In this document: piece by piece, positions 13,307-46,795 of the stretch | Layout: each line of letters begins with the position of its first letter | How positions within the stretch are numbered: the first letter of the stretch is position 1 | Virus record (IMG/VR): IMGVR_UViG_3300037067_025869 | Coordinates: 1-64,000 of that record | Strand: one strand, 5' to 3' | DNA from: a virus | Lineage: Duplodnaviria; Caudoviricetes | DNA length: 64,000 nt | Notes under the pieces: model-generated | What the model saw: only the letters and a program-made list of their open reading frames with translations | Databases searched by the model: none | What the model was told of the DNA's origin: nothing | Made by a program: the position numbers and the translations under genes

Positions 13307-14107
13307 TCATACAAATAATTTAGCCCCTATTTTTTCTTCAGCTCTTTCAATATATTTTTGATAGTTTGGGTTCTTTAAAGATTTTTGTATTGCAATAATT
13401 TCTTCTTCAGAAGGAATTTTTAATTGATCTTTTTCCTTTAATACTGTATCAGTTACAATTCCTAAGTGAAAATATGCTATTTTAGGATGCCCAGCAACCT
13501 GCCCAATTTCTAGGCATCTAATAACCCGCACGTCATTTCCTATCAAAAGAGGTTTATCCGTAATGCCCTTAAATGCAAGAATACGATGAAAATTATCATT
13601 ATCATTTATAACTAGTATTTGGCCGGGCCTCCATCCAAATAATTTTTCCTTAATCTCTCTTTCTGATGATGATCTTTTAAATTCCATCGCTTCATTGAGT
13701 GAAGGAACTAATCCAGTCTCCTCTGCTATTTTTTCCAGATATTTAGGCAATTCGGAAAGGGCTTTTCGAACTTTGTCAATTTCTTCATTAGTCAATCCTC
13801 TTTTTCCCTCAGCCCAGAGATCAGTTATTCCAAAAACTTTCGCACTTCGAACTAAAAAATGGTTTAATTTTCCATCCTTTCGAAAAAGCGCCCCAATATA
13901 GCAAACAGCAATTGGAATCCCATCCCCCTCTAAATCATCCTCTCTTGCTCTTTTGATAAACATATAAACTTCTTTATATGGTTTATTCTTTGCCCAGGGT
14001 TCATCATAAGTAATTAATTGGCCTGGTCTAAATCCTACTAATCTGTCTTTAATCTCTCTAGAAGAAAGACCTCGTTGGAAGTTGATACTTTCTCGAACCA
14101 TTCCCAT
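13307..14107 (-). CDS. Protein of two tandem related domains, putative virion internal protein
   Basis: RESINFQRGLSSREIKDRLVGFRPGQ repeated as LNEAMEFKRSSSEREIKEKLFGWRPGQ. Confidence 0.75.
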   Translation of the reverse strand: MGMVRESINFQRGLSSREIKDRLVGFRPGQLITYDEPWAKNKPYKEVYMFIKRAREDDLEGDGIPIAVCYIGALFRKDGKLNHFLVRSAKVFGITDLWAEGKRGLTNEEIDKVRKALSELPKYLEKIAEETGLVPSLNEAMEFKRSSSEREIKEKLFGWRPGQILVINDNDNFHRILAFKGITDKPLLIGNDVRVIRCLEIGQVAGHPKIAYFHLGIVTDTVLKEKDQLKIPSEEEIIAIQKSLKNPNYQKYIERAEEKIGAKLFV

Positions 14108-14108
14108 T

Positions 14109-14804
14109 TTATTCTGTTGTTTCCCCGCCGAATTTTTCCGAACTTTCTTCAGCTTCTTCTTTGGTTTTAAAACTTATTCCATCCTGATGATTTGGAGGGG
14201 AATAAAGAGTATATAATTTTAAAGCTCCTTCGCCGGTATTAATAATATTATGCTTAGAACCTGCAGGAACGATTATACCACTTCCATCTTCAACATCATA
14301 TTCTTCATCATTAATAATGACTGTTCCTTCTCCCTCTTCAAATCTAAAAAATTGATCAATATCAGAATGAACTTCTTCCCCGATGTCTTCTCCTGGTTGT
14401 AAGATCATCAATACAAGCTGAAGATTCCCACTTGTATACAATACTCTTCGAAAATCTTCATTTTCTAGGGTAGCTTCTTCGATATTTTCGTGGAATCCTT
14501 TTTTAGCTGATCCGTCTTTTGATGTTTTATCTTCAGTAGGTTCATCCTCGCTAGATTCTTCTCTAGCCATATTATAAATATATTCTTCTACTTCTTCTGC
14601 TTCAATACCCATTTCATCTGCAAGATTATGAATATCTTCGTCTTCAAAACCCCCCTGATATTCGGAAACAAAAGCTTCGATTGCTTTCTTTTGCGCTGAA
14701 GTAAATTTGATTTCATCTACTTCGGGTTTTCCATCTATTTGTTCATCCTCGACAAATACCTCCGATAGAAATTCTTGCAAATTTTCATTGACAATTTTTT
14801 TCAT
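14109..14804 (-). CDS. Cupin-domain protein with acidic N-terminal extension
   Basis: NEDFRRVLYT, GEEVH..DQFF..EEG, IVPAGSKHNIIN, LYTLYSPPNH. Confidence 0.85.
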   Translation of the reverse strand: MKKIVNENLQEFLSEVFVEDEQIDGKPEVDEIKFTSAQKKAIEAFVSEYQGGFEDEDIHNLADEMGIEAEEVEEYIYNMAREESSEDEPTEDKTSKDGSAKKGFHENIEEATLENEDFRRVLYTSGNLQLVLMILQPGEDIGEEVHSDIDQFFRFEEGEGTVIINDEEYDVEDGSGIIVPAGSKHNIINTGEGALKLYTLYSPPNHQDGISFKTKEEAEESSEKFGGETTE

Positions 14805-14823
14805 AATTATGCTATATTTTATT

Positions 14824-14832
14824 TATATATTC
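14824..14832 (-). promoter_or_regulatory. Putative phage late promoter (RATAWATA)
   Basis: GAATATATA; the same motif precedes many genes (e.g. 13251-13259, 24372-24380, 26988-26996, 32977-32985, 35863-35871, 58321-58328 minus; 49432-49440, 51915-51923 plus). Confidence 0.6.
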
Positions 14833-14836
14833 CAAT

Positions 14837-14864
14837 AAAAAAACGGGTGTTTATCCCGTTTTTT
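14837..14864. terminator. Intrinsic terminator (symmetrical)
   Basis: AAAAAAACGGG-loop-CCCGTTTTTT downstream of nrdJ. Confidence 0.75.
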
Positions 14865-14888
14865 AATAGATCCCTTTTATAAAGAGCA

Positions 14889-17480
14889 TTAATTGCATTT
14901 TGAATATCCGCAATTTTTACATGAGCTACATCCAGACTCTTTTATTAGAGGTTTTCCACATTCCGGGCATACCTCTCCAATAATTTCTTCTATAATATAC
15001 TTAGAAAGGCATCTTCTAATAACTGATGAAAAAGAAGTAATATTTTCATCTATTTTAGTAATAATATGATTAACATATCGAATTGGAGCACCGTGTCTTA
15101 AAAGCATCGAAGCAGATAGTGTTAATGTTTTTTCTTCAATCCTACTTGAAGTTAAATTGATATCTCCTATTTCAAATTCTCCATTAATAAATTTATATTG
15201 CCCCTTTTTGAGTTTAATTATTTTTCCGCGGGTATTTTTTAACACAGGGGGGTTTTCAAAAGCAAATACTTCATAAGGGCGATTAGTTCCCGGCCATAAT
15301 CCAACTATGACAGCAAATTTTATTCCTTTTGCAGTTACGGCATAATAATCTGCTTCAAGAACACGCGGTCTCTTGGGAGCAGTAGTTTCTTTAAATTCGG
15401 ATTCATCTTTTTCTTTCTTTGATAAAAGAACACCTGCTCTTGACCCCTCCCTGTAGATTGTTAATCCTTTGCAGCCTGCTTTCCATCCCTGAAAATAAAT
15501 ATCATTAACCTCTTTTATACTTATCTTTTCAGGAAGATTGTGTGTTACTGAGATCGAATGATCTATCCACTTTTGAATAGCCCCCTGCATGTGAACTTTT
15601 TCAAGATAATCAATATTATGCGATTCAGCTCCGGCCCAAGGGGATTCTTTTATTAATTCATTAAGAGTTTCTTCTGGAAGGGATTTAAATTTTGCTAATA
15701 CCTCTTCAAATGACAAATTCTCAGAAACTTGTCCCCCCCTATCCATTAATTCCTGCAAATTTTTAATCTTATGCTGAATATACCAATCAATAAATGGATA
15801 ATGAATGACATTGTATTCTTCAAAGGAATCCCCGTTATCGTCAACAAATGAAACTTTAACCCCCTTCTCACCGGGATTAACTTTTCTTCTTCTACGATAA
15901 TAAACCTTGAAAACAGGTTCTATACCTGATGTTGTTTGCGATAAAATAGCTAATGATCCTGTAGGAGCAACAGTTAAATTAGCAATATTTCTACGCCCGA
16001 ATTTTAAATAATCATCATATTCTTTATTATCGAAATTTTGACCAATGACTCTCCTAATAAATGGGTTTAAAGATTCTTTATCAACATTCCAGATCGGGAA
16101 ACATCCCCTTTCTTTAGCAAGATTTATACTTTCCCTATAAGAATTAATAGCTATAACCTTATGAATTTGTTCGGCTAATTCCGTAGCCTCTGAGGTTCCG
16201 TACTTAATTCCGAGAGCTGCAAACATATCGCCAAGCCCCAAAATACCTACTCCTGTACGTCTTCCATTGCGAAGAAATTTAAGTATTTTTGTCCATACTT
16301 CTTTTTCGGTTCTTTTAAATTCTTCAGGCTCCTTATCATTAGTGATTTTATTTAATATTTGAAGTATTTTCTCTTCCTCTGCATCAATAACATCATCCAT
16401 AAATCTTTGAGCATATTTTGCCCTCTTTGCAAGTTCTGCCCAATCGATTCTTGCATCTTTTGTAAATGGATTTTCAACGATGGTATAAAGATTAATACTG
16501 CCTAACCTGCAGCTATCGTAGGGGGATAATGGTAATTCTCCGCAAGGGTTGGTTCCCAATGTTCTGAAACCCATGTCATTATACATATCGGCTGGGGATT
16601 CTTTCAATATATTATCCCAAAATAATACCCCCGGCTCTGCGTTCTTGTGTGCTTGTTTTATTATAGCATTCCAAATCTCCCTTGCTTTTACCCTACGAAC
16701 ATAGCATCCTTCTTCGGTTCTATAAAGTTTATTGTAAATATATTTTTCAAAAACTTTTGGCTGAATAGATTCTGCTGGCCACCGAAGAAGATAATCTTCA
16801 TCTCGTTCGACAGCGGTCATAAATTCATCTGTAATCTTTACTGAAACATTAGCTCCGGTTACTTTTGTAAGATCCTCCTTTTTCATGATAAAATCCATGA
16901 TATCTGGGTGGTTGACATGACAAGTTATCATAAGGGCCCCCCTTCTACCATCTTGAGCAACCTCTCTTGTAGAATTAGAATACCGCTCCATAAAAGAGGT
17001 AGCTCCAGTTGAAGATTGAGCAGCATTGTTTACAGAAGCGGTTGCAGGGCGAAGATGTTCAAGAGTTATTCCGACCCCTCCTCTTCTTTTCATAAGTTGG
17101 ACAATGGATTCGTCAATATTGAATATGCCTCCATATGAATCTGAGCCATTATCAATAAAAAAACAATTTCCTAATGAAGATATTTGCCCGGTATTTCCTA
17201 ATCCAAATTGGATTGACCCGCCAAATATAAATTTCTTAAAGTTTTTTAAAGAGTCATATATTTCTTCATAGGGTAGGGGGTTGGGATATTTTTGTTCGAT
17301 CCTGTAGATTTCTTTTGCTAATCTTCGAATCGTATCATCCGGGGTTAATTCTAGGTAATAATTTTCATTTTTTAATTTTAATGCGTATTTTTTTATCCAT
17401 ACATTCGTTGCTAACAAATCCTGCTGAAAATATTTTAATCCAGCCTCCTTTAATTGATCCTCCGTATACTTATTTTCCAT
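14889..17480 (-). CDS. nrdJ: Class II (adenosylcobalamin-dependent) ribonucleotide reductase
   Basis: GNCF, GGVGI, TNPCGE, CRLGSINL, APTG, Q..IDHSIS, C-terminal CPECG...CxxC zinc ribbon; no ATP cone. Confidence 0.9.
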   Translation of the reverse strand: MENKYTEDQLKEAGLKYFQQDLLATNVWIKKYALKLKNENYYLELTPDDTIRRLAKEIYRIEQKYPNPLPYEEIYDSLKNFKKFIFGGSIQFGLGNTGQISSLGNCFFIDNGSDSYGGIFNIDESIVQLMKRRGGVGITLEHLRPATASVNNAAQSSTGATSFMERYSNSTREVAQDGRRGALMITCHVNHPDIMDFIMKKEDLTKVTGANVSVKITDEFMTAVERDEDYLLRWPAESIQPKVFEKYIYNKLYRTEEGCYVRRVKAREIWNAIIKQAHKNAEPGVLFWDNILKESPADMYNDMGFRTLGTNPCGELPLSPYDSCRLGSINLYTIVENPFTKDARIDWAELAKRAKYAQRFMDDVIDAEEEKILQILNKITNDKEPEEFKRTEKEVWTKILKFLRNGRRTGVGILGLGDMFAALGIKYGTSEATELAEQIHKVIAINSYRESINLAKERGCFPIWNVDKESLNPFIRRVIGQNFDNKEYDDYLKFGRRNIANLTVAPTGSLAILSQTTSGIEPVFKVYYRRRRKVNPGEKGVKVSFVDDNGDSFEEYNVIHYPFIDWYIQHKIKNLQELMDRGGQVSENLSFEEVLAKFKSLPEETLNELIKESPWAGAESHNIDYLEKVHMQGAIQKWIDHSISVTHNLPEKISIKEVNDIYFQGWKAGCKGLTIYREGSRAGVLLSKKEKDESEFKETTAPKRPRVLEADYYAVTAKGIKFAVIVGLWPGTNRPYEVFAFENPPVLKNTRGKIIKLKKGQYKFINGEFEIGDINLTSSRIEEKTLTLSASMLLRHGAPIRYVNHIITKIDENITSFSSVIRRCLSKYIIEEIIGEVCPECGKPLIKESGCSSCKNCGYSKCN

Positions 17481-17554
17481 TAAACATATTTTATTTTTAT
17501 TATTTTTATCTCATTTTAAGCAAGTTATATATCCATTTTTAACGGTTTTCGATA

Positions 17555-19207
17555 TTAAGAAGAAAAATTATAATTTTTTTTATATTTTAAATTGCCAGAG
17601 TCAAAAGCTCTAATGAATCCTTTTTCGTGCATTATTTCTATCTCAGTTTTCTGTTTATTTGATTCATTTATAATTTTATCTTTCCTATAAGAAAACCTAT
17701 GCTTTCTACATCCATTTATAATCCAGTAATAGCCTGGGTCACATTCTTTTTCCTTTTTAAATCCTATTTTCTCATAAAATTTTCCATTAGAATAATCTCT
17801 TTTAGCATAAGTTATAATACAATTTGGTTTATAAGTTTTTTCAAAATATGTTAATATTTTTGAAGCACCCCCGACAATTACGGTATTTAGAGCAGAACAA
17901 AATCGATGAAGTTCGTAATTTCCTTCCGCATATTTTGAACCTAAAGAAATTCTATTTTTTCCGAATCCCATTACCGAAACCAATTGATCTGAATAGAAAA
18001 GCCCGATTTTAATAGAAGAATTTATAGCTCCTTGTAAATGGTTTTTTATTAAAAATTCTTTATATTCATAAGACCCTATTTCTCTAATATAAGTTTTCCT
18101 TGCGAAAATTATATTTTCAGTTTTATTTAATTTATTAGAAATTAAAGATTTAATTATTTCTTTTTTATTATAAAAATCGTCTTCCCATATTTGAATTAAC
18201 TGTATTCCCCTTTCCTCGCATTTTTTTAATTTATTTAAATGATATTTTTTATTTTTATAAATTTCAGAATGCCAGTAAATGCCATTTAGTTCAATAGCTA
18301 AATTAAATTCCGGAATAAAAAAATCTATTTCTTCTGGCTTTATAATTAATCTGTCATTTTTAAGATAATTTATTTTTAGATCTCTTAAAATTTCTTCAAA
18401 TTCGCTTTCAAACGAAGAAAATGAATTTAAAGGATTACATATAGGACAAATTACGCCATTTCTGTTTCGAGCAGCTCTATTATAAAAAGTTATAGCATCT
18501 ATTTTGAACTCAGGATGCTTTTCACATGCATTAAAAATTTTCAAAGAATTTGTATCCAAATACTCTACTTTATAACCCTTTACACACCACTGATTAATAG
18601 AGTTTTCTTTTTTATTTTTCCCGTTATCTCTATATTCTTTTAATGAAAATATATTTCTTACCCCATATTTTACTAATAACGTATTTTCGGCTTTTTCTTT
18701 TATCTCCTTTATTTCGAATGGAGATTTAACATTTATCCCATACTTTTTATAGAGAGTTTTATTTCTTTTCTTTTTAATGAAATCCCCATTTTCTGAATAA
18801 ATTTTTTTTAAGGATTTAGAAACCGATAAACTATTTTTATTTATAATCTCTGGATCTTTATTAGCGCATGATCGGGAACAATAAATCCCATAATTATATT
18901 TAAATTTTAGAGGGGTTTTACAAATTTTACAAAGAGGGCGTGTTGATAAGTCATGGGTTAAACAATATATTTTCTCCTGTAAAGAAAAAGATGAATCAAA
19001 AGAGGAATTTATGAAATCCCATAAATCATATTTCAAGAGAAATTTTTTATTTGTTCTAGAAGGAATAATTAATTTTTTTCCATTTAATAGCAAAGACTTA
19101 ATTCTATCAATCATACGAGCATTTTCTCTATATATCCCTTTACTATGAGAGGGATTTAGATATTTTATTTTCTCTTTCCTTAAGTATTTTTTGTAATTCA
19201 ATAGCAT
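17555..19207 (-). mobile_element. Free-standing endonuclease: Zn finger + PD-(D/E)XK (Vsr/Hef-like) + GNAT-like domain
   Basis: CKIC/CSRSC, EIDFFIPEFNLAIELNGIYWHS, IQIWEDD, NHLQG, YELHRFC, GGASK, YEKIGF. Confidence 0.8.
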
Positions 19208-20591: not shown

Positions 20592-21030
20592 TTTTATTTT
20601 TTATTTTATTTCGATTTTTATAAGCTCCATTTTCCCAAGCTTTATGAATTTTATTTGTATTTCCTATTTTAGATATTGATATATTTTTCTTGGCTTCTTC
20701 TGACAAAATCATTCCTAATCCGCCATCTCCTCCTTTTGTCATATTATATCCATATTCTGATAAATTCGTTTTGTCTTTATCAATCCAATAAGTTTCTCTT
20801 TCGCATAAAATTTTATGTAACTCTATTTTATTATCTGCTATATGTTCTTCAATAAGCTCCCATAAAATCTTTTCCCATCCATATTTTTTGATTGCGGAAT
20901 AAAAACTGCATTTTCTTCCTTTCAAAAAAGAATATCTATGTTTGATTTTTCGTTCCTCGAATCCCAAAGATGAATATCCATAATATTTTTTACCTGAAGG
21001 CGATGTAGCACAATAAATTATACCTTTCAT
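20581..21030 (-). mobile_element. GIY-YIG homing endonuclease
   Basis: GIIYCATSPSGKKYYG, ERETYWI, GYNMTKGGDG, SEEAKKNIS. Confidence 0.85.
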
Positions 21031-22916: not shown

Positions 22917-23123
22917 TTACTTAACGCCTATTTTTTGCATAAGTTTTTTTACAATATCCCAAGATATGAGGGTTCCATCTTTTCCTAATAGACCTTCTTT
23001 GCCAGCAAAAACCCTTGAAATTCCATCAATTTTGAAACCCTCATAATTATGACCACCCATTTGAATAGTTTCATTAACGGGTTCGTCAATAGATTCTTTT
23101 ACTAGTTTAACGGATTTTTTCAT
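22917..23123 (-). CDS. Small putative virion internal protein
   Basis: N-terminus MKKSVKLVKESIDEPVNE. Confidence 0.7.
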   Translation of the reverse strand: MKKSVKLVKESIDEPVNETIQMGGHNYEGFKIDGISRVFAGKEGLLGKDGTLISWDIVKKLMQKIGVK

Positions 23124-23890
23124 TTTATAGTCTGTTTCATCGAATTTTGATTTTCCTTGGCTTTTTTCTTCTTAAATGGAAGTTTTACCCCCATTTTTTT
23201 AGCTATTGCCACCCCCAATTTATCGTATGGCGAAATATTTGTTTCATTAAGCGATTCTTTAACCAGTTTTACTTTTTTTCTTTTCCTTTTCTTTTTCTGT
23301 TTCTGATTACCGCTTCCCCAGATATCTCCGGATCCTTTAACCCCCGATTGATAAAATTGATTCCCAGTAGTAGCAACTTGCTGAGCTGGTACAGCATTAC
23401 TCATTCCTGGGACACTTCCCGCCCCGGTCATAGGAGCTCCCGTATCTTCATTTATTGGATTTCCTTTTTCGTCATACCCCCAAGCTTTTCTCCGATATTT
23501 TTCTTCATATGGCTGAGAATAAATTTCTCTATTTAGAAAATCATCAATAGCTGATTTATAAGGAGGACTAAAATAATAAGGTCTCCCATTATAATTGATG
23601 AAATCTTCTAATGTAGCCCATGGTTTATTTGTATCCGTACTATAATCCCCTGAATTATCAGCAGTACAACGCATAAGTTTGCTTCTAAGGATATTTTCAA
23701 TATCAAATGGGGTGTATTTTTCTTTTAAAAGCCATCGAATAATCCTCATCCATTCATTATCACTATAGTAAAGACCATAAGAATAAGCCCGATTATCTCC
23801 AGATGTAGTTTTTTTAAAAATAACATTAGCAATACCAATACCCATGGTTTTTTTAGGGTCCTGACCCCGTAAGAATCCTGCTTTAGACAT
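23120..23890 (-). CDS. Hypothetical protein with FxRGxDP leader
   Basis: GFLRGQDPKKTMGIG; internal INE and LVKESLNE sites. Confidence 0.75.
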   Translation of the reverse strand: MSKAGFLRGQDPKKTMGIGIANVIFKKTTSGDNRAYSYGLYYSDNEWMRIIRWLLKEKYTPFDIENILRSKLMRCTADNSGDYSTDTNKPWATLEDFINYNGRPYYFSPPYKSAIDDFLNREIYSQPYEEKYRRKAWGYDEKGNPINEDTGAPMTGAGSVPGMSNAVPAQQVATTGNQFYQSGVKGSGDIWGSGNQKQKKKRKRKKVKLVKESLNETNISPYDKLGVAIAKKMGVKLPFKKKKAKENQNSMKQTIK

Positions 23891-23901: not shown

Positions 23902-24354
23902 TTATGCTCCTCCAAAGGTTGTATGACCGCTGGTTCCACCGCTAGCAAATGCAGTTTTAAGATTTACGGCTTCCATATTTTTCCATGCAACTTGAAGTTT
24001 TCCTTGAACATAGGTAGGGCTAGTTCTCCCATAGAATTTTGCAGAAGCTGCTTTTTCGAGATATTTCTGAAGCATTTCCAATGGAGCTTTTTCCGCCCAT
24101 ACCTTAAGTGTTTTTCTTCCAGCTTCGGGTGAATCAGCAACATAAGTTTTGAGAGCTACCCCCCAGGCAAATTTTCTAACGGATTTTTCATCATCTTTAT
24201 TAAGACTCTCATATTCCTTATTTAAACCCTGAAATGCTTTTTTAAGCCCGGCAACAAAATCATTTACGATTGATTCGGAAACAGCATTCATTTCTTCGTT
24301 TAATTTTGCATAAGCACTCTCATTGAGAGATTCTGCTACTAATTGGATTTTCAT
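23902..24354 (-). CDS. Putative virion internal protein
   Basis: MKIQLVAESLNES leader; late-type motif upstream. Confidence 0.75.
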   Translation of the reverse strand: MKIQLVAESLNESAYAKLNEEMNAVSESIVNDFVAGLKKAFQGLNKEYESLNKDDEKSVRKFAWGVALKTYVADSPEAGRKTLKVWAEKAPLEMLQKYLEKAASAKFYGRTSPTYVQGKLQVAWKNMEAVNLKTAFASGGTSGHTTFGGA

Positions 24355-24415: not shown

Positions 24416-25393
24416 TTATAGATTAAGAGAATCTATTAAGCGAGTTCTAATTTTGCTAATTTTTTGAGCTATTTTAATATTTTCAGGATTATCGTCAAAA
24501 AATGTTATATCATCATATTTGTCTGCTAAGCTTTGTAGAATCTTTCTTTTCTCCTCCGGTATATTAATTTCCCCTTTATCATCACCAATAGTTATAATAT
24601 GATCCTCAGGAATATCAATTCCATTTCTTCTAAAAAAAGTCCAAATAGGTATTTTAGCAATAGCTGATCTAGCTGTAAGTATAAAAATTTCTGAAGTGCT
24701 TCTTCCCTGTTTAATAGCTGCATCCATATTTTGAAGAGCAGGCCACATTTTATATGGTTTTGCTTTTAAAATTATTCTGGGGTCCTTAAATTCAGAAACA
24801 TCTATTTCTTCATCTTCAGCTTTCTGATAAAAATTAAATTCTTCCGGGGTTAATGATTTTAGGAACTTACCTGCTTTATAAACATGAACTTTTGCATCAG
24901 TTTTTACCAAAGTATCATCAAAATCCCAGATATACGCCTTGGTCTTTCTATTTACTGTTTTTGCTCTCATTCTATTTTCTTTAAGAGGAAAAGATTTAAT
25001 TTTTTCTATTTGTTCTTTAATTTTTTCAAGTCTTCGAACAGTTCTCCATTCATGATTAGCATCAGCATTTTTAATTGCCCCCTCAAGGTCTGCTCCTCTT
25101 TTTTGAATTATATGTATTGCTACCTCGTCATTTTTTTCCCAAGCTAAAACTTTCAATATTTCATGCTCCTGAGAATTTATATCAAGGCCTTGCGATAAAA
25201 GATAATCCATAAGATCAGATCTTTTTGCTGTAGCACAACTAATGAAATATCCTATTTCGTCCATGCTTTCAGTATTTTTCTCTTGAGATTTAGCCAATTG
25301 TTTAATTTGACCCATCATTCCTATGCCAATAGCATTTTTTGGATCTATGTCTCGGCTAAAATTCAATACTTCGCTGATAATTATAGCTCTCAT
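24416..25393 (-). CDS. FxRGxDP-leader, ankyrin-like + HAD phosphatase fusion
   Basis: NFSRDIDPKNAIGIG; LLSQGLDIN and KRGADL ankyrin-like turns; WDFDDTL, ILTAR, FFDDN HAD motifs. Confidence 0.75.
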   Translation of the reverse strand: MRAIIISEVLNFSRDIDPKNAIGIGMMGQIKQLAKSQEKNTESMDEIGYFISCATAKRSDLMDYLLSQGLDINSQEHEILKVLAWEKNDEVAIHIIQKRGADLEGAIKNADANHEWRTVRRLEKIKEQIEKIKSFPLKENRMRAKTVNRKTKAYIWDFDDTLVKTDAKVHVYKAGKFLKSLTPEEFNFYQKAEDEEIDVSEFKDPRIILKAKPYKMWPALQNMDAAIKQGRSTSEIFILTARSAIAKIPIWTFFRRNGIDIPEDHIITIGDDKGEINIPEEKRKILQSLADKYDDITFFDDNPENIKIAQKISKIRTRLIDSLNL

Positions 25394-39200: not shown

Positions 39201-39260
39201 TTTAGATAGTAAGACAATTTAGCTTTTTAGATATCTTTAATATATTCTATATATCTACGA

Positions 39261-39291
39261 AAAAAGGTAAAGTTTTTGACTTTACCTTTTT
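39261..39291. terminator. Intrinsic terminator
   Basis: AAAAAGGTAAAGT/ACTTTACCTTTTT perfect inverted repeat. Confidence 0.75.
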
Positions 39292-39315
39292 ATTTTATTA
39301 ATATTTTATTAAAAA

Positions 39316-39654
39316 TTACATTGATAAATATTCCTCCATTTTTCTTTTTGCTTGCCCCAGTTTAGGAAAAGTATTCTGAGCTCCCCTTTCCCCTTCTTTA
39401 CTCCAAGCTGCAATATAATATTCTAAACCCGAATCTACCCATGCTAAGTGATATCCTGTTGCATCTAATGATATAGATACCACTACTATTTCAAGGTCAG
39501 GATCTTTTTCTGTTTTATCATCAGTTATTCGAGGATTTAGATTTGGGTTAATTTCTTTAAAAGCTGCTATAAGTTTTTGTGCTTCTCTAGCATGTTTATT
39601 CCCAATATTCATCGAATCTTTAGGATCTACCCCCCTTACAAACTGCGCTCTCAT
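39316..39654 (-). CDS. Hypothetical protein with FxRGxDP leader
   Basis: MRAQFVRGVDPKDSMNIG. Confidence 0.75.
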   Translation of the reverse strand: MRAQFVRGVDPKDSMNIGNKHAREAQKLIAAFKEINPNLNPRITDDKTEKDPDLEIVVVSISLDATGYHLAWVDSGLEYYIAAWSKEGERGAQNTFPKLGQAKRKMEEYLSM

Positions 39655-39968
39655 TATAATAAAAGAAGTTCTATTTTTTTAACGAAAGATTGTTTATTTC
39701 CAGCGCCAATTTTAGTATCAAATACTTCTCCTTTTTTTATAAAAAAAACAGAAGGTATACTTTTTATTTTGTATTTTTCGCATAATTCAGGATTTTCATC
39801 TACATTACATCTAACTATTTTTACTTCATTTCTATATTCTTTTGATAAATCCTCTAAAATGGGGGAAATAATTCTGCAAGGGCCGCACCAGTCAGCTTCG
39901 AATTTAATGATTAAGTTTGGAGCATTTTTTATGATTTCATCGTAATTTTTATTGGTTAATTCTTCCAT
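39654..39968 (-). CDS. trxA: Thioredoxin
   Basis: FEADWCGPC, NVDENP, IKSIPS. Confidence 0.95.
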   Translation of the reverse strand: MEELTNKNYDEIIKNAPNLIIKFEADWCGPCRIISPILEDLSKEYRNEVKIVRCNVDENPELCEKYKIKSIPSVFFIKKGEVFDTKIGAGNKQSFVKKIELLLL

Positions 39969-40059
39969 ATTTCTTCATTTTTATTTTATATTCCAAATAA
40001 TTTTCCCTCTTTATTAATTTATCTGCATTTTGAACCCCTTATTTTCCCCCATTGAGCGA

Positions 40060-40296
40060 TCATTTCATTTGCATTCCATATCCGTATTTAGAAGATTCGG
40101 GTGTCCAAGTAGCCTTAACCCCGGTTTCTAGGGAGCTAAGAGCTTTATAAACTCTTGACCTTCCCCCATACTCTTTGACTATTCTGTCAAAAATTGATTT
40201 AAGCTGAGCTTTAGCTTGATCAAGTTGTCTTTCGTGAAATCTTCCGAGTTCCATAGAATCCATTGGATCTACTCCTCTTACAAAGCGAGCATTCAT
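40060..40296 (-). CDS. Small protein with FxRGxDP leader
   Basis: MNARFVRGVDPMDSMELG. Confidence 0.7.
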   Translation of the reverse strand: MNARFVRGVDPMDSMELGRFHERQLDQAKAQLKSIFDRIVKEYGGRSRVYKALSSLETGVKATWTPESSKYGYGMQMK

Positions 40297-41510
40297 TCTT
40301 TGTCTCTTCCAAAGCGGAAGAAGCTGATTATTTTAAGTAGAGGAAGATAACTTCCAGTAAGTTTAAATAATTTTCCTTCATAATTGAAAACAACCCCCTC
40401 TATTGGTGCTATCGAGTCGAATCCCCCCGCTCTAAGAAATCTTTCATATTGAGCTTTTAGAAACTTGGATTTTTCTCCACGGTATTCACTCATCTTATTT
40501 ATCGCATCATCAGTTTTATCTATTATGGATTTTTGGGCTTTTGAAGGGTCGGAAGAAGCTATATTCTCCGAATTTAATAGTACTTTTGATCCAACTCTAG
40601 AAAATATTTCAATTATTTGTTCCAAAAATACTGTTCGGATACTATCTATATTTTTATCTGTTTCTTTTACCCATTTAACGGTTTGCTGATTTTTTCCAGC
40701 TAAAAGTTTAGTAATAGATGTTGATTTATCCAGATATGCCCATCTTCGAATAAGACTTTTTATTAGGTTAAAATCCCTTTCCCTAATTTTTGAAAATTCG
40801 AAATCGATAAAATCCCAGAATTCAATTGCTAAAAAATCTTCAATAGTATTTCTTTCTGCCAGATTAAAATTTTCCATCAGGGAATCCAGATCTTTTAAAA
40901 ATTCTGTAGGATCCATAAATTTAAGTGAAACCTTATTAGTCTTATCGATTTCAAAAGTTTTTGAAATTCCCTCTTGAGCAACTTTTATTAGTTTCAATAA
41001 TGGGTCAAAATTAATATCTATAACCCCATTTTCAGTTTGCACATTATGAATTCGGAGTTGATTTTTATTATATGGAATAATATTTTCCATTAAAGGTGTC
41101 AACAATTCCATATTCAGCCAATATTTTCCATTTAGAAAGAAATTTTGAAGAATTTCTTCATCTATAGTAAATAAAACGTTTTGTAAATCCTTTGCGGCGG
41201 TTGAATAAGCTTCTCGGGATTCTAGAGTTTTCATATATTCTCCCACCAGATCCCAGCGCATCGCTTCAGCACCGTTATCCCGGACTTGTTTTAGGGAACG
41301 AGCAATATAGACATGACCGCTCTTATAAGTTGCTAGAATATTTACCCCATCCAATTTTTCTTTTGCATTCTCTAAAGTACCTAAACACGATTTAATGATA
41401 ATCTCTCTAATCTGTCCAAATGTTAAATCCATATTCTCCCATGGAGATTGGATATGTCCTGCTGCACCGCTCATATATTTTTTCCGATTAATTTTTCCAT
41501 TATTTTTCAA
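40293..41510 (-). CDS. RNA-ligase-like nucleotidyltransferase
   Basis: GAAGHI, EKLDG motif I, LNMEL, IEGVV motif IV, FKLTG motif V. Confidence 0.7.
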   Translation of the reverse strand: MKNNGKINRKKYMSGAAGHIQSPWENMDLTFGQIREIIIKSCLGTLENAKEKLDGVNILATYKSGHVYIARSLKQVRDNGAEAMRWDLVGEYMKTLESREAYSTAAKDLQNVLFTIDEEILQNFFLNGKYWLNMELLTPLMENIIPYNKNQLRIHNVQTENGVIDINFDPLLKLIKVAQEGISKTFEIDKTNKVSLKFMDPTEFLKDLDSLMENFNLAERNTIEDFLAIEFWDFIDFEFSKIRERDFNLIKSLIRRWAYLDKSTSITKLLAGKNQQTVKWVKETDKNIDSIRTVFLEQIIEIFSRVGSKVLLNSENIASSDPSKAQKSIIDKTDDAINKMSEYRGEKSKFLKAQYERFLRAGGFDSIAPIEGVVFNYEGKLFKLTGSYLPLLKIISFFRFGRDKE

Positions 41511-41555
41511 TGATATATTGACAAATTTGGATTGTCGCCGCCATTATGGTTCCTG

Positions 41556-41876
41556 CTAAATAAGCCGCAGCGATCTAAACCAATTTAAAATCCTATTTTT
41601 TTTAGTCTGAGGATAAAACCAGCTTCCTGTAATTAAAAACACAATTGGCAATCCGATGAGCATTAGCAACATTAAAATAATTGCAAAGGGTAGTGTAAAT
41701 CTCAGCCATGTTTTTACAGGGGTTTCATTTTCGGTATAAAAATCAATACCTAATAAAATCCATCTATCACACATTTCTTCGCTTGAAACTTTCTTAAGCT
41801 CTGGAAATGTTTCTTTGAATTTTGGTATGTAGTTCATATCATTATGAGACCATACTCGTTTTAATTTCCTGTACAT
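41556..41876 (-). CDS. Membrane protein
   Basis: Hydrophobic helix FAIILMLLMLIGLPIVFLITG. Confidence 0.7.
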   Translation of the reverse strand: MYRKLKRVWSHNDMNYIPKFKETFPELKKVSSEEMCDRWILLGIDFYTENETPVKTWLRFTLPFAIILMLLMLIGLPIVFLITGSWFYPQTKKNRILNWFRSLRLI

Positions 41877-41926
41877 TTTTATCTAATTTTAGGTTAACAA
41901 TTTAATTAAAAAACACGAAACCAAAG

Positions 41927-42766
41927 TTATTTTTTACGTGTCCAAGTTTTCTTTGTCTCATTCCATTCCCAATCTTTGAGAGGTTCTTCATCCTCGTCTT
42001 CATCTTCTTCCTCCGTAATAGGAAATTGGGATTTATAATTATATCCTGCTTGATAGCGATCATATCCTAATGGGGAACTTTCTGATGGGGTTCCAGATGT
42101 ATGTAAAGCTTCGGTAACTTGATCCGCAGCAACGTCAGATTCTGGTAAACTAATATTTTGTTCCAGAGTATCCCAAACGAATGAAACTTGTTCTTCTGTT
42201 GAGTCAGGGTATCCTGTCATAAAATTTTCTAAATCGCCATTAATTAAATCTTGTCTTAGAACACTTGCAGAGATAGGTTCGCCTTCATGTTCATCTGTTC
42301 TACCTTTGAATCTTAAAGGCTCAATATTGACAGGCAATTCAACTATATTGATTCCCCTTCTATAAAATTTGCCTTCTAAAGAATGTTTCCAAGCAAAATC
42401 TGAAATTCTTTTAGCATTTTCTTCTTCCTTGCTGGAAGCTGCTAAAGTATATTGACCCGGATCTGCTTCTTGAACAATCTTATAAGCTGCTAATATTGGA
42501 GAAGCCCAAGGAACTGCTTCGATTGTTGCTTTTTTAATATTTTCAGTTAGTTTTTCAATCATTTTTACAGCTATATTTTGGGTGATTCCCCCTCGAACAC
42601 CTGGCCCAACAAGAATTCTGATTTCTTCAACTTCAGGAAGTTCGGCATATTTTTTAATAAGGTCAATATGCCCGCCGCTACACGGTTTAAAACTCCCCGG
42701 AAATAAAACTATTACGTTTTTAACTTCTGATTTTTTATTCATAAATTTGAATTTTTTATATCGCAT
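41927..42766 (-). CDS. HIGH-type (cytidylyltransferase/NMNAT-like) nucleotidyltransferase
   Basis: LFPGSFKPCSGGH, ISASVLR; acidic tail. Confidence 0.75.
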   Translation of the reverse strand: MRYKKFKFMNKKSEVKNVIVLFPGSFKPCSGGHIDLIKKYAELPEVEEIRILVGPGVRGGITQNIAVKMIEKLTENIKKATIEAVPWASPILAAYKIVQEADPGQYTLAASSKEEENAKRISDFAWKHSLEGKFYRRGINIVELPVNIEPLRFKGRTDEHEGEPISASVLRQDLINGDLENFMTGYPDSTEEQVSFVWDTLEQNISLPESDVAADQVTEALHTSGTPSESSPLGYDRYQAGYNYKSQFPITEEEDEDEDEEPLKDWEWNETKKTWTRKK

Positions 42767-43635
42767 TTTTTTAAAACTTCATTTGGTAGGGGAAGATTTT
42801 GCTCCTCTATGCACTCGATAAATCTATTAATGATATCTGCTCGTTTATTTATCCATTTAAAATTAGGGGACATAACTATATGCCATAGCTTTTCAAATGT
42901 ATCAATATCTGATGGAATAAACTGGCTTCCCACAGTCAGATCTAAAATTTCCATAGGTTGATCTGTAACAAAATATTCGGATCCATTGACATTCGTTCCA
43001 CCCTTAACCAATTTTCCTTTCTTCCCCATAAAATTTTTGCGAACCCTCCAAACCCCCCACGGAAATTTAAGTATGTTTACTTCGATTTCTTCTATTCCCC
43101 CTATATCAGTAAACTTAATTATTTCTTTTTTTGATTCTGTAATAATAGCCATTAAAAGAATATTTCGATAAAATCCTTTGTATTCAGATTCCCCTTTGCG
43201 AAAATCCGGAGAATGATAAATGAATTCTGACCACTCGAGATTGTGTGTTATCATAAAATCCACTTGAACAATCCCCATTTCATGATTCCCTGCAATAGGA
43301 CAGCCGAAGGAAACAATTCTAAATCCATAATTAATAGCTGAATCAAATCCCAGTGTTTCTAATTGATGCTGCAGCATATTTAATTCAGTATTTTTAGGAA
43401 AAGAATTGGGGTCTGGTTTAAGAAGAACGGCAATATCAATATCCCCATAAATTTCCCCGTCTTTTTTCTTTCCATAAGAACCCAATAATTCAATATCCTG
43501 TTCTCTGATTAGTAAATGCCGAAGAACATTTTCTTTTAGCCATTTAACTGTTTCTTGAGCTTCGTCAAAAGTAACCGGACGAGAAGTTTTAATTGCATTC
43601 CCTCCCATGATAATATTTTTTACAAATATACACAA
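42739..43635 (-). CDS. Pol-beta-superfamily nucleotidyltransferase
   Basis: LLGSYGKK...GDIDIAV, third Asp in VQVDFM; likely start MGGNA at 43608. Confidence 0.75.
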   Translation of the reverse strand: MCIFVKNIIMGGNAIKTSRPVTFDEAQETVKWLKENVLRHLLIREQDIELLGSYGKKKDGEIYGDIDIAVLLKPDPNSFPKNTELNMLQHQLETLGFDSAINYGFRIVSFGCPIAGNHEMGIVQVDFMITHNLEWSEFIYHSPDFRKGESEYKGFYRNILLMAIITESKKEIIKFTDIGGIEEIEVNILKFPWGVWRVRKNFMGKKGKLVKGGTNVNGSEYFVTDQPMEILDLTVGSQFIPSDIDTFEKLWHIVMSPNFKWINKRADIINRFIECIEEQNLPLPNEVLKKCDIKNSNL

Positions 43636-43655
43636 AAATGGGATAAGTTTTATTC

Positions 43656-43937
43656 TTATCCCGTTATGATTTCGTTAAACCCCCATTCTTGAAAGCTTTC
43701 GAATGCTTGTTTTTGGGTGGGTTGTAAATCCCTTTGGAGAATACTGATTAATTTCATGGAAGGCTTTCGAACTAATTCCCCTTGCGTCTGATATATCTTA
43801 GGATCTACTTTACCTAAATATTTCCAACGCATAAGTTGATTAGGAGTAATGTGAACTTGATAAAGATCCTCTCCTTTTAAAACAGTATGGGAATAAATGT
43901 AATTTCCCCTATTTTTGTATATTTGGAGGTAAGGCAT
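43656..43937 (-). CDS. Hypothetical protein
   Basis: 93-aa ORF overlapping the upstream gene. Confidence 0.6.
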   Translation of the reverse strand: MPYLQIYKNRGNYIYSHTVLKGEDLYQVHITPNQLMRWKYLGKVDPKIYQTQGELVRKPSMKLISILQRDLQPTQKQAFESFQEWGFNEIITG

Positions 43938-44538
43938 CTTCTTTTGGAGCTTCTTTTTTAACTAGATTAACTACCTTTCGAGAGGTTTTGTCTGGATCTT
44001 TATCTTTATTGGGATGCCAGGAATAAACCCCTTTCGTAAATGTAATCTGGAAAGGCTCCCGAAGCTCCCTTTTATATTTTCCCCCCTTACCTGATAAAAC
44101 ATAGGCAAGAGTGAGATGAGGATGAAATTCAGGGAAAGTCTGGGTATTTGGAATTTGCATAAAAAGATCCCGATATTTTTGTAATTGACCGGTTAGAGGA
44201 ACATTATATTTTACAACATCATATTCTTTTCCGGGAAAAACATCAACTTCCTTGATTGTAACGGTTACCGGTTTCATATAGTATTCAATTAGATCGGCCA
44301 TCCTCTGAGGATCAACTTCTTTTTCGTGGATGCCATAAAGAATTGTTACGTGGGGTTGTTCTTCCAACCCATAGGAATCATCATAAGGTTTTAAATAAAT
44401 ATCTTCCCTTTCAATTCCTGCTGTATGAAATTCTGTCCAATTTTTTATATCGGCATCCATCATAACACAGCCAAATTTTTCATCATTAGCTGAAGTGTCG
44501 GATTCATTTAACCATTGCAAAAAACTTTGAAATTTCAT
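43909..44538 (-). CDS. 2H phosphoesterase, Acb1/gp57B-like
   Basis: Two HxT motifs: PHVTILYG and PHLTLAY; leader MKFQSFLQWLNE. Confidence 0.8.
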   Translation of the reverse strand: MKFQSFLQWLNESDTSANDEKFGCVMMDADIKNWTEFHTAGIEREDIYLKPYDDSYGLEEQPHVTILYGIHEKEVDPQRMADLIEYYMKPVTVTIKEVDVFPGKEYDVVKYNVPLTGQLQKYRDLFMQIPNTQTFPEFHPHLTLAYVLSGKGGKYKRELREPFQITFTKGVYSWHPNKDKDPDKTSRKVVNLVKKEAPKEDALPPNIQK

Positions 44539-44567
44539 CTTTTAAATATTTTTAATTTTATTTTAAA

Positions 44568-45347
44568 TTATATGGTTTTTAACATCCCGATTAAAGATGG
44601 ATCCGGGTGGCAATCAGATTTATCCTTACGATATGATACATGAGTCCATACTCCAGGCATACCAGATAGAGCATCCTGGGAAAGATCCCACATTTTCTCA
44701 TGATACATGAGAGTAATATTATATTTCTGTTTCCAAAATAATAAAAGTTCCCCTATAGTTTGTATCTGTTCATTTGTATATTTTTCATAGTAGTTATATC
44801 CGCGAAATCCGCTTGGATAATATTGCATTGCAACATCAACGGCATTACCATAGTAGGTATAAAATTTTCCTACTTCAGTATGAATATTTTTAGAGGGATT
44901 TCCAAATTTTTTAATGGTTCCATCACCAGGAATTAATCCCCCCCAGTTATCAATCTCAATACCAATTGATTGAGAATCTCTAAGTTTGTTTCCTATTCCT
45001 AAATGCCAAGCCCAGTATTTTGAAGAGAATAACTGATGCGGAATTCCATTTCGATCGATAATCATAGCGGTTCCTACAACTGTTGGATCGTCTTCCCAAG
45101 TTGCAATATCTCCGGTAACACCATTGCCACTTATTGTATGATGCAAGCAAATTTGTTTTTTCAGACACTCCTCATGAAAATATTGATCTTCTGGAAAATC
45201 AATAACTTTGATTTTGTGAAGTTCAATGGGTTTTAAATCTGACCGCATATTAGAAATTATTTTAGTTGCAGAAGCATCTTCTTCTGGCGTATGCTCATAA
45301 AACTTCCAATCTTTGATCCAAGACCAATAAAAAGGAAATGATAGCAT
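44568..45347 (-). CDS. N-acetylmuramoyl-L-alanine amidase (Amidase_2), putative endolysin
   Basis: ICLHHT, AWHLG, SIGIEIDN, YTNEQI, THVSYRKDKSDCHP. Confidence 0.85.
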   Translation of the reverse strand: MLSFPFYWSWIKDWKFYEHTPEEDASATKIISNMRSDLKPIELHKIKVIDFPEDQYFHEECLKKQICLHHTISGNGVTGDIATWEDDPTVVGTAMIIDRNGIPHQLFSSKYWAWHLGIGNKLRDSQSIGIEIDNWGGLIPGDGTIKKFGNPSKNIHTEVGKFYTYYGNAVDVAMQYYPSGFRGYNYYEKYTNEQIQTIGELLLFWKQKYNITLMYHEKMWDLSQDALSGMPGVWTHVSYRKDKSDCHPDPSLIGMLKTI

Positions 45348-45357
45348 AAGTTTTATT

Positions 45358-45852
45358 TTATTTATCCATCATTTCATTTCTTATTAATCTATTGCACTTA
45401 CTTTTCCAATTAGCCCCAATTGAATTAATTGCTTTAGTTTTAGTATATTTGAGTATACATCTATTCTCAATCCAATCATTATCAAGATGCCATAAAAAAT
45501 CATTCCAGAATTTAAAAAATGGCCATTTATCATCCATATCTGTAAAGTGAATCCTTTCTTTGGGAATTCTTAGTCGTTCAGCTATTTCAAAAAGATCTTT
45601 ATTTGTTAAGCCAACAGCAGCTGTATTTTGGAAAAAAGATTTATATCTTTCATCATCTCCAAATCGAGAGGTTACAATCCACACTTCAATTCCCTCATCA
45701 ACAAGTTCTTGAGCATATTTTTGAACTGATTCCCTCGATAGGGTTTCATCGAAACCAAAGCTTACACGGATTGTTTTTTCCTTTTCCATGTTTTTAGAAA
45801 AAATTAAGAAGCTTAGGCCTGTTTTTAATATGTCTAAGCTCCTTAGATCCAA
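45358..45852 (-). CDS. HAD-like protein with nucleophile Asp replaced by Gly
   Basis: VSFGFDETL, VWIVTSR, WHLDND; likely start MEKEK. Confidence 0.7.
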   Translation of the reverse strand: MDLRSLDILKTGLSFLIFSKNMEKEKTIRVSFGFDETLSRESVQKYAQELVDEGIEVWIVTSRFGDDERYKSFFQNTAAVGLTNKDLFEIAERLRIPKERIHFTDMDDKWPFFKFWNDFLWHLDNDWIENRCILKYTKTKAINSIGANWKSKCNRLIRNEMMDK

Positions 45853-45857
45853 AAAAA

Positions 45858-46184
45858 TTAATAGGGTTTAATATGGGGGAGAAGTTTTTCCCCTCTAGGA
45901 GTAACTGCCCAACCAGATTCTGTTTTTTCTACTATTCCGACTTTTGAAAATAAAGCTAAAGATATTGCTGCTACTTCTTTAGCATCGTGAATAGCATTTT
46001 TTATTTCTGATTCTGTTAAAACAGGAGTTCCCCCTGTTTCGAGTTTCTTTACTACACGAGCCTTCATAGACGCATAAATTGATTCTCTTTTCATAAAAGG
46101 AACGGTTATTTCCTTATCATATTCCCCCTTATCAATTTTATCCTTCATTTTATTTAGAAAGACATGTGATGATTCTGCATTCAT
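45858..46184 (-). CDS. Hypothetical protein, possible winged helix
   Basis: C-terminal KVGIVEK...WAVTPRGEK. Confidence 0.65.
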   Translation of the reverse strand: MNAESSHVFLNKMKDKIDKGEYDKEITVPFMKRESIYASMKARVVKKLETGGTPVLTESEIKNAIHDAKEVAAISLALFSKVGIVEKTESGWAVTPRGEKLLPHIKPY

Positions 46185-46420
46185 AATTTATCAGGTTTTT
46201 CGTATTTATTTCTTATTATACCCGAAAAAGCTACGATAATTTTCTATTAACGAAGATTTAACACTAAAATTATAGCTCAAAAAAGAATTTAACTAATTTT
46301 TAACGAAAAAATAAAAACTATCATTAGAGAAGTCATACAATAAGTGTCCAAGAGAAAAAGAAAGAATTTACTCTAATAGAAAGAAAAGAAAAAAGAAAGA
46401 TAAATAAATAAAAATATATT

Positions 46421-46795
46421 ATGAATCTAATCCCCGAATCTTTAGAAGAATCTCTAAATTTTGAAAGAGGGCAAGATCCCAAGAAAAGTATAAGGATCGG
46501 TTTAAAATATCCAAGAAGATTTGAGACTATTGACGAATTTGTTGATTATATCATATCTGCTATGCCCTTAATTTTTAATGGTGAAATCCCTGATGATATT
46601 TTAAACTCCGAAGAACATTTATGGCTTCCCATAGCATATTTCCAAAAAATAGCTACTTGGTTGAAGAAAGAAAAATTTGAAATGCCCAATGGAAATACTA
46701 ATTGGGACTATACATTTGGCATGTCCGATGAATTCGCGCATTGGCCTAAATCAATTGCTTTAAGATTAGAACAAATGCTTGATCAGAAGAGGTGA
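46421..46795 (+). CDS. Hypothetical protein with ESLEES + FxRGxDP leader
   Basis: MNLIPESLEESLNFERGQDPKKSIRIG. Confidence 0.75.
   Translation: MNLIPESLEESLNFERGQDPKKSIRIGLKYPRRFETIDEFVDYIISAMPLIFNGEIPDDILNSEEHLWLPIAYFQKIATWLKKEKFEMPNGNTNWDYTFGMSDEFAHWPKSIALRLEQMLDQKR

Follow-up and report, generated by a model that had tools for sequence, protein, structure and literature searches.

The ejection proteins of bacteriophage T4 carry a capsid-targeting sequence (CTS) of 10-20 amino acids that is removed by the prohead protease gp21, and the gp21-family proteases of T4, phiKZ, 201phi2-1 and SPN3US cut after Glu in x-X-E motifs (PMC5694885; PMC7411985; PMC3012670). The cleavage motifs read L/I-x-E in T4, A-x-E in SPN3US and S/A/G-x-E in phiKZ, and the E-protein paralogues of giant phages share an identical N-terminal stretch ahead of a diverged remainder (PMC5694885). 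Polyvalent proteins join 2 to 15 unrelated domains in a single polypeptide; packaging and injection are predicted for them, proteolysis has been proposed to free their domains, and their genes are located near virion genes (PMC5512222). Here we analyze a peptide tag of the general form F-x-R-G-x-D-P...[I/L]-G that is present on otherwise unrelated proteins encoded by a 64,000-nucleotide stretch of viral DNA (Caudoviricetes; positions 1 to 64,000 of the IMG/VR record IMGVR_UViG_3300037067_025869), hereafter the window. The tag is a widespread and strongly conserved peptide that is usually preceded by a Glu site, and it serves both as the N-terminus of single proteins and as the junction between the modules of polyproteins. 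Tentatively, we read the tagged proteins as protease-cut, head-loaded cargo modules that would retain a docking peptide.

A six-frame scan of the window with the pattern [FYW]-x-[RK]-[GDNE]-x-D-P-x(2-10)-[ILMV]-G gave five matches, all of them within residues 5-27 of open reading frames (ORFs) starting with ATG; five ORFs fit the narrower form F-x-R-[GD]-x-D-P-x5-[IL]-G in the first 25 residues. Shuffled windows (n=200) averaged 0.01 matches after mononucleotide and 0.025 after codon-block shuffling and never had more than one. No further canonical copy is present in the complete 74,849-bp record. A profile derived from 149 foreign-phage instances recovers all five sites (E = 1e-14 to 7e-7 per genome), and the pattern scan and this foreign-only profile agree with the positions at which the initial annotation had put them. 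The best-scoring copy (E=1.1e-14) belongs to the 124-aa protein encoded by 46421-46795 (+), where leader, hydrophobic-x-Glu site (h-x-E, with h for a hydrophobic and x for any residue) and tag (46430-46501; core 46460-46501) read I-P-E-S-L-E-E-S-L-N-F-E-R-G-Q-D-P-K-K-S-I-R-I-G ahead of an all-helical orphan body. The other four lie on the minus strand. In the 325-aa ORF 24416-25393 (E=3e-12), leader and tag (25319-25378; core 25319-25360) and an ankyrin module (together residues 1-139) are followed by a HAD phosphatase (141-325), and the 256-aa protein 23120-23890 (E=7.5e-8) has the core F-L-R-G-Q-D-P-K-K-T-M-G-I-G at 23834-23875. The 112-aa protein 39316-39654 (E=3e-8) places the short prefix M-R-A-Q before its core (39601-39642); its start overlaps the stop of a thioredoxin gene (39654-39968), and a close homologue in the IMG/VR locus L059 has the identical M-R-A-Q prefix. 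In the 78-aa protein 40060-40296 (E=7e-7), the prefix is M-N-A-R and the core is located at 40243-40284; the start of its gene overlaps the stop of an upstream 405-aa ORF (40293-41510).

A variant of the tag had also been reported to occur twice in 13307-14107 (-), which encodes a 266-aa protein with two homologous modules. Two copies are indeed there (14018-14098 and 13619-13702; residues 4-30 and 136-163), but each is only half a tag, h-x-E-[SA]-h-x-F-x-R followed by S-x-x-E-I-K-x-[RK]-L-x-G-[FW]-R-P-G-Q, the second standing directly behind S-L-N-E|A. The foreign-instance profile accordingly picks up the N-terminus of this protein (E=2.6e-5) by the leader and the F-x-R-G part only (model positions 2-16). 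Its modules are 54% identical to modules of polyproteins from the loci L001, L041 and L053, which also hold canonical tags, and in the 667-aa polyprotein of L001 this body family alternates with them.

Outside the window, a degenerate DNA pattern for F-x-R-G-x-D-P-K-x-x-[IM]-x-I-G, with a chance expectation below one in IMG/VR, matched 84 loci of that database, many with 2-5 copies, and a looser peptide scan of these loci yielded 254 unique instances. As the DNA pattern fixes F, R, G, D, P, K, I and G, the conservation of these residues is partly ascertainment for most foreign instances; positions -8 to -1 lie outside the pattern. When a 32-position tag profile was searched against 1.84 billion representative proteins, 1978 of them scored at E<=1e-3, 534 at E<=1e-10 and 102 at E<=1e-30, and 102 of the 1978 have at least three tags, with a maximum of 12 in a single protein of 1511 aa; all ten of the top hits that were looked up are unnamed metagenomic proteins. 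By profile count, the record of the window (G000, 75 kb) holds 6 tags, and four related records hold 21 (G001, 137 kb), 37 (G002, 133 kb), 25 (G003, 78 kb) and 19 (G004, 66 kb). In 596 Gb of prokaryote genomes the DNA pattern was met at three places only, one of them a chance match. The two true tags reside on short contigs, L101 (CAIMVD010000236.1) from an 'uncultured Bacteroidetes' metagenome-assembled genome (MAG) and L102 (MWBV01000048.1) from a 'Candidatus Diapherotrites' MAG, which are probably mis-binned pieces of tag-bearing phages. Among MAG annotations, a homologue of the HAD protein is assigned to a Diapherotrites MAG and one of the capsid protein to a 'Nanoarchaeia' MAG. A word-indexed search of proteins with the first 40 residues as query gave one relative only, the method being too insensitive for a short motif.

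Across all instances the full motif can be written as [V/I/L]-x-E-[S/N/A]-[I/L/V]-[N/D/E]-F-[E/Q]-R-G-x-D-P-K-x-[S/A]-[M/I/L]-x-[I/L]-G. In 238 instances Arg is encoded by AGA, AGG, CGT, CGA or CGG, Gly and Pro by all four of their codons, and Ser at -3 by both TCN and AGY; such free synonymous change, spanning both codon blocks of R and of S, points to selection on the peptide, as had been proposed from the window copies. A DNA-level element, be it a promoter or a recombination site, was considered as the main cause of the conservation and is ruled out by the same codons. The Glu site that the initial annotation had noted upstream of the tag proved to be general: in the 877 tags with at least eight coded upstream residues, Glu occupies position -4 in 98.3% and [ILVFMY]-x-E positions -6 to -4 in 90.3%, shares slightly favoured by a tag-finding profile that includes upstream columns, compared with 16.9% for any h-x-E in background 8-mers of tag-bearing proteins. 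At the putative cut, the P1' residue is S, N, A or G. N-terminal copies either keep h-x-E (M-I-V-R-E-S-I-N-F, M-K-A-K-F-V-Y-E-S-L-N-F) or have two to four residues before the Phe (M-N-F, M-R-A-Q-F); in about 50 of the 254 unique IMG/VR instances, nothing but M-N or M-D precedes the tag at the native N-terminus of the protein.

The two halves of the motif are separable, since a variant tag in the 477-aa protein P0229 has V-N-E (V-N-E-K-F) at another offset. This variant, V-N-E-K-F-T-[DE]-D-S-D-P-I-H-D-M-x-I-G, links HAD, ankyrin and LRR modules and keeps the F...D-P...M-x-I-G spacing without the R-G. Leaders of the kind M-K-x-x-h-x-E-S-L-N-E are also present on the untagged window ORFs 23902-24354, 14109-14804, 22917-23123, 43909-44538 and 53523-54023; they end in L-N-E or h-x-E without FxRG, and many such leaders are found among the genes of G002 and of the ENA contig L086.

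Search against existing libraries gave the tag no name, in agreement with the initial annotation. The six window proteins had no match over it in Pfam-A or PHROGs v4 (E<=1), nor did they, together with three polyproteins, in NCBIfam 20 (E<=0.1); the tag profile found nothing among PDB sequences (0 matches at E<=10), and tblastn of a 1167-aa polyprotein and of the 28-aa tag against 50,697 GenBank phage records gave no match. AlphaFold2 (AF2) modeling of the 124-aa protein 46421-46795 returned confidence values (pLDDT) below 50 for residues 1-23 and of 85-93 for the body (30-123). In protein P0268, both tags (residues 1-23 and 133-160) likewise have pLDDT<50 and are located between an ankyrin domain and an alpha/beta domain. 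A stretch that is conserved and yet predicted to be disordered is the signature of a short linear motif. A Foldseek comparison of the AF2 model of the 46421-46795 protein with the PDB gave nothing at E<=0.001, and the ESM Atlas holds a poor model of this protein (pLDDT 0.42) with no usable neighbours.

What the initial annotation did not contain is the tag's second location, the internal junctions of polyproteins with up to 12 modules. Internal and N-terminal copies are equally frequent, many ORFs have 2-10 of them, and in the top profile hits they are spaced 80-160 residues apart (median 118). We considered the polyproteins as an artefact of another genetic code and ruled this out, as the long frames are open under table 11. 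The 869 unique modules fall into 243 BLAST clusters, and their bodies comprise ankyrin repeats, BspA-like LRR, VWA-like domains, an all-helical fold and a helix-plus-beta-sheet fold, the rest being orphans; a few match fibre-type domains (endosialidase beta-barrel, PilW_C). When 122 module representatives were scanned with Pfam, all matches fell in the bodies (Ank, LRR, VWA-like and others) and none over the tag. The view of unrelated payloads in the initial annotation is confirmed: the bodies differ in fold, and no family match places the motif in one known homologous domain.

Single genes and polyprotein modules are interchangeable through fusion and fission. A 517-aa polyprotein of four modules from L059 contains, as its module 2 (residues 137-208), a counterpart of the 78-aa window protein 40060-40296 (47% identity over 72 aa; E=1e-23), and the body family of 46421-46795 forms four tandem modules in P0129 and two in P0139. 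The tag-plus-ankyrin module of 24416-25393 has HAD as its partner in the window, a tagged module in four relatives and a different domain in three, and it occurs with other downstream modules in P0188, P0261, P0266, P0268 and P0191. The junction behind it always reads P-[LV]-[KY]-E, whether a tagged module, the HAD enzyme or something else follows; in the window it is in-frame at 24953-24991 (F-P-L-K-E|N-R-M-R-A-K-T-V). The HAD part exists by itself, as a 182-aa protein, in over 100 relatives. These stand-alone enzymes also begin with M-R-A-K-T-V, a start retained by the HAD part of 24416-25393, which, judged by its sequence, could be translated independently as well.

The upstream h-x-E matches the specificity of gp21-type prohead proteases, and head genes of this type are found in the tag-bearing clade. 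G002 encodes a Peptidase_S77 domain (T4 gp21, PF03420; E=3e-16), directly followed by a gene for a gp23-like major capsid protein (MCP; E=8e-38). The protease (L087:1456 onward; G002 60768-63302) is fused to a coiled-coil-like, lysine-rich tail of about 600 residues with 16 h-x-E sites; this scaffold-like tail is studded with h-N-E sites, and by sequence the ORF looks like a protease-scaffold fusion. Forty MCPs of the clade share an invariant or nearly invariant H-A-L-N-E|A-x-M-G-G-V-S where T4 gp23 has its maturation site. The capsid protein begins with M-K-Q-L-N-E|A, its N5 and E6 being invariant in the 40 sequences. A 184-aa ORF of G002 (87638-88192) starts with M-K-E-L-T-Q-A-E-I-T-T-K-W-G-P-M-L-E-Q, close to the capsid propeptide, and may be a second user of the capsid N-terminal assembly signal.

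A further link to the capsid lies in a tagged protein of the window itself. In the 23120-23890 protein, residues 151-190 match residues 51-90 of the G002 gp23-like MCP with 65% identity over 40 aa (E=1e-12); this copy of the mature N-arm (23318-23458, -) stands behind P-I-N-E| and is followed by a K-rich stretch and then by L-V-K-E-S-L-N-E with an N-x-S-P-Y-D-K-L-G tail (23162-23266). The same C-terminal module is found on the HAD homologues P0237, P0247 and P0250, there behind I-L-E|D-M-G-G-V-S-A-P. In its general form, the N-arm copy of this module is followed by a K-rich stretch and N-x-N-P-Y-D-K-[IL]-G...K-K-M-G-V-K-x-P-F-K-K-K-K. By their sequences, proteins with this module imitate the cleavage region of the capsid protein itself, and the module may represent a second, independent capsid-association device.

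Tagged genes also surround a baseplate gene. In G002 and in the unrelated contig L086, the gene for a Phage_base_V spike is flanked by tagged genes in the order tagged gene, spike, tagged polyproteins and a 1117-1221-aa protein. The spikes of the two phages are 76% identical and their large proteins 37%, and the regions compared are 99.5-105.4 kb of G002 and 1.3-17.5 kb of L086. Between these two genes lie 1.4 kb with one four-module protein in G002, whereas in L086 the interval measures about 11 kb and holds at least 25 modules. This spike-side interval is a hyperplastic locus, comparable to the internal-protein locus of T4. Alt-family genes of T4-like phages adjoin baseplate genes although their products are packaged in the head (PMC5512222). 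A late-promoter test with the T4-like TATAAATA found it upstream of the MCP-adjacent gene, of the protease gene and of several tagged genes, but there are 39 copies in G002 against 49 expected; being below the composition expectation and mostly intragenic, TATAAATA gives no evidence on timing.

In the reading that we tentatively prefer, the tag would be a two-part, disordered junction peptide that opens each small cargo module. Its first part, [V/I/L]-x-E followed by S/N/A, would be cut after the Glu by the gp21-type prohead protease of the phage. The second, F-x-R-G-x-D-P-K-x-x-M-x-I-G, would stay on the released module, three residues from its new N-terminus, and the M-N-F-E-R-G and M-R-A-Q-F-V-R-G forms would carry it at the native N-terminus already. 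It would act as a short linear docking motif that holds the module in the prohead, at the scaffold core or the inner capsid wall, and that perhaps guides its exit with the DNA. Single tagged genes would thus be equivalent to polyproteins of up to 12 modules, the latter being loaded and then cut to pieces small enough for storage and possibly for ejection, much like the T4 internal proteins in far greater variety. Cleavage, head location, docking and ejection are steps that we infer from several lines of evidence. The h-x-E fits the protease of the clade, the predicted state of the tags is exposed and disordered, and a tagged protein copies the capsid N-arm. The narrow module size across different folds, the tagged genes round the spike gene with their Alt-family parallel, and the equivalence of genes and modules by fusion and fission point the same way. 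So does the depletion of [ILV]-x-E-[SNAG] within module bodies (observed/expected, O/E, 0.77; z=-4.5), compared with an O/E of 1.35 in untagged proteins of tag-bearing phages and of 1.24-1.45 for D/Q/N controls; as [KRDNQ]-x-E-[SNAG] is depleted in both protein sets too (0.83 and 0.81), this evidence for site avoidance is soft.

Several other observations weigh against head loading. The tagged genes of the window share strand and block with replication and nucleotide-metabolism genes (PolB, UvsW-like helicase, primase, ribonucleotide reductase and thioredoxin); the two that overlap the stops of upstream enzyme genes look early or middle rather than late, and other polyproteins sit amid methylase, PolB and NUDIX genes. 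Within the 75-kb fragment of the window, MCP, portal and protease were not found, its recognisable structural genes being those for sheath, tube and a lectin-like protein. The head link therefore rests on related records; of these, only G002 has the protease above the cut-off (it is weak in G004), and the MCP is present in G002 and G003. Cultured relatives were absent from a megablast of 24 kb of the window against the 50,697 GenBank phage records. The P' side of the MCP site (A-x-M-G-G) is unlike S-h-N-F-E-R-G, which leaves FxRG itself without a link to the protease, and no complementary or similar motif was found in head proteins. The HAD phosphatase joined to modules is a metabolic enzyme and not an obvious head cargo. 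The alternating hydrophobic and polar residues from -6 to 0 could form the beta-strand of a partner-induced fold, and the profile columns mentioned above slightly favour tags with Glu(-4).

The position of the tagged genes amid replication and nucleotide-metabolism genes, or near methylase, PolB and NUDIX genes, would suit a cytoplasmic adaptor library, a rather unlikely alternative in our estimate, in which the tag docks diverse binders (ankyrin, LRR, SH3-like and others) to a common hub of host or phage, such as a protease, chaperone, polymerase or compartment. The tag would then play the role that the F-box or SOCS-box has for substrate receptors, and polyproteins would be intact multivalent binders or be cut by a protease other than that of the head. 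In its favour, the identifiable bodies are mostly protein-binding folds (Ank, LRR, VWA-like), the conserved but disordered tag resembles a linear motif, and an enzyme (HAD) is joined to modules. Such adaptors leave unexplained why Glu at -4 is kept in 98% of tags together with the hydrophobic residue at -6, why the site persists without FxRG, why module size is narrow, why the capsid N-arm is copied, and why tagged genes cluster with baseplate genes; no candidate hub was identified. The spike-flanking order, kept in two diverged phages across an interval of 1.4 to about 11 kb, and the few fibre-type bodies (endosialidase beta-barrel, PilW_C) are what one would expect if the tag anchored modules to the spike or baseplate, as type VI secretion system (T6SS) markers do on VgrG/PAAR, or to the virion exterior, so that arrays of small binding domains serve adhesion or are delivered at puncture. 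We consider this unlikely. At 19-37 tags per 66-137-kb fragment, the number of modules per genome would be of the order of 100, more than a spike tip or the lumen of a tube could take. Receptor-binding proteins usually have trimeric fibre folds, which these bodies are not, many tagged genes are distant from tail genes, and the site of a Glu-specific head protease would have no role outside the head.

That modules are plainly shuffled, fused and split at tag boundaries, and that the most-used codons yield short DNA microhomologies, could also mean that the tag is a passive linker, cap or shuffling boundary with neither partner nor cleavage. This is very unlikely in our view, given that a non-interacting linker would hardly keep ten near-invariant residues under free synonymous change, that homologous recombination needs identity of DNA rather than of peptide, that AF2 packs the tag onto no body, and that the roughly 50 of 254 instances at a native N-terminus need no linker. 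Hardly credible, finally, is a single diverged domain family in which the payloads are homologous and the tag is merely the best-kept part of one fold. Module length is narrow, and complete polyproteins can be aligned with 23-30% identity in more than one register, but these alignments are carried by the tags and their even spacing, and bodies as different as ankyrin, LRR, all-helical and helix-plus-sheet, in 243 BLAST clusters for 869 modules, speak against it.

Set beside the described systems, tagged head cargo would most resemble the T4 CTS proteins IPI-III and Alt, in which a short N-terminal peptide with a hydrophobic-x-Glu site is likewise found on unrelated, fast-evolving small proteins (PMC3012670; PMC7411985; PMC5694885). 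The tag, too, is shared by unrelated proteins of one phage (5 ORFs in the window, 19-37 tags per related record), and head genes of both the gp21 and the gp23 type are present in the clade. The T4 targeting peptide precedes the cut and is lost, whereas the 14 best-conserved residues of the tag follow the putative cut and would remain on the protein; in many copies, nothing but M-N or M-R-A-Q stands before them. As the removal of the targeting peptide that defines the T4 CTS does not apply to it, we do not class the tag as a member. The T4 CTS reads M-K-T-Y-Q-E-F-I-A-E, which the tag does not resemble beyond the h-x-E. The tag is also found internally, up to 12 times per protein, and tens of modules per 100 kb, compared with four proteins in T4, would imply a cargo repertoire one to two orders of magnitude larger. 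A conserved peptide that lies downstream of the cut and recurs as a polyprotein junction is possibly new relative to T4 capsid targeting.

The E and inner-body proteins of giant phages (SPN3US gp53/gp54, phiKZ gp93) compare well in that they stem from jumbo phages with many head-internal proteins and Glu cleavage at x-X-E; their propeptides are, unlike the tag, 100-130 residues long, removed and confined to few paralogous families, and neither bead-on-string polyproteins nor an FxRGxDP-like motif are described for them in PMC5694885. The polyvalent proteins have enzymatic and anti-restriction domains (MPTase, ART, ParB-like) and no common junction peptide (PMC5512222; the words 'linker' and 'ankyrin' are absent from its text), whereas the tagged modules are mostly orphans or binders of uniform size with one conserved motif between them. 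None of the polyvalent conflict domains (MPTase, ART, ParB-like, primase, anti-restriction) was matched in the Pfam scan of the 122 module representatives.

Conserved N-terminal markers on diverse payloads are also known from contractile-tail-related machines, namely MIX, FIX and RIX of the T6SS and the signals of extracellular contractile injection systems (eCIS/PVC), whose genes lie beside the spike. These are folded domains or 50-aa signals of other sequence that occur once per protein in bacterial systems, and we know of none that is repeated as a junction. The tag gave no Pfam match, in libraries used without MIX, FIX or RIX models, and its context is a phage. Encapsulin cargo-loading peptides are short, disordered, have a G/I/L-rich end and dock cargo inside an HK97-fold shell with one site per subunit; they are usually C-terminal and lack the invariant F, R and P. 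The apparent likeness of S-M-G-I-G in the tag to S-L-G-I-G-S-L covers about five residues.

A bolder version of the head-cargo reading, which we regard as doubtful, would have of the order of a hundred different small binder and effector domains in each head, made as beads on a string, cut by the maturation protease and docked by the tag one per subunit on the inner capsid, to be co-injected with the DNA as a combinatorial anti-defence or host-takeover cocktail with a module size set by the bore of the tail channel. If head loading is correct, this would be the largest and most modular natural phage system for protein delivery known, in which a 14-residue address and a protease site can load and release arbitrary domains of about 12-15 kDa, and it would extend the T4 capsid-targeting idea that is already used for engineered protein-carrying phage particles. 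A single profile (about 2000 protein clusters) would then make it possible to mine hundreds of orphan domains, including anti-defence proteins, whose likely targets are bacterial hosts at the very onset of infection. Whether or not head loading is wrong, the tag is a widespread, unnamed and strongly selected linear motif that organises about one tenth of the coding capacity of G002, and its partner is worth finding.

The window is a fragment of a T4-like jumbo phage of about 400 kb, the size that follows from the CheckV completeness of 18% for this IMG/VR contig. Its T4-like genes include a split family-B polymerase with an HNH insertion, a UvsW-like helicase, a primase and ribonucleotide reductase; it also codes for tail sheath, tube and a protein with a C-terminal sorting domain of the type IX secretion system, which points to Bacteroidota as the probable host. 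Contigs of 376, 388 and 405 kb carry homologues of the HAD gene of the window and of the capsid gene of the related records, and more than 2385 proteins are related to the gp23-like capsid protein at E<=1e-10, the best 120 listed being 71-85% identical. The tag-bearing phages appear to be a very abundant, uncultured group of jumbo phages with genomes of about 376-405 kb. Three paralogous ORFs of the window, 17555-19207, 58329-59897 and 61221-62726 (-), encode HNH/homing-endonuclease-like proteins of 500-550 aa; one overlaps, directly downstream, the ORF for the N-terminal part of the family-B DNA polymerase, and one contains a Mom-like region.

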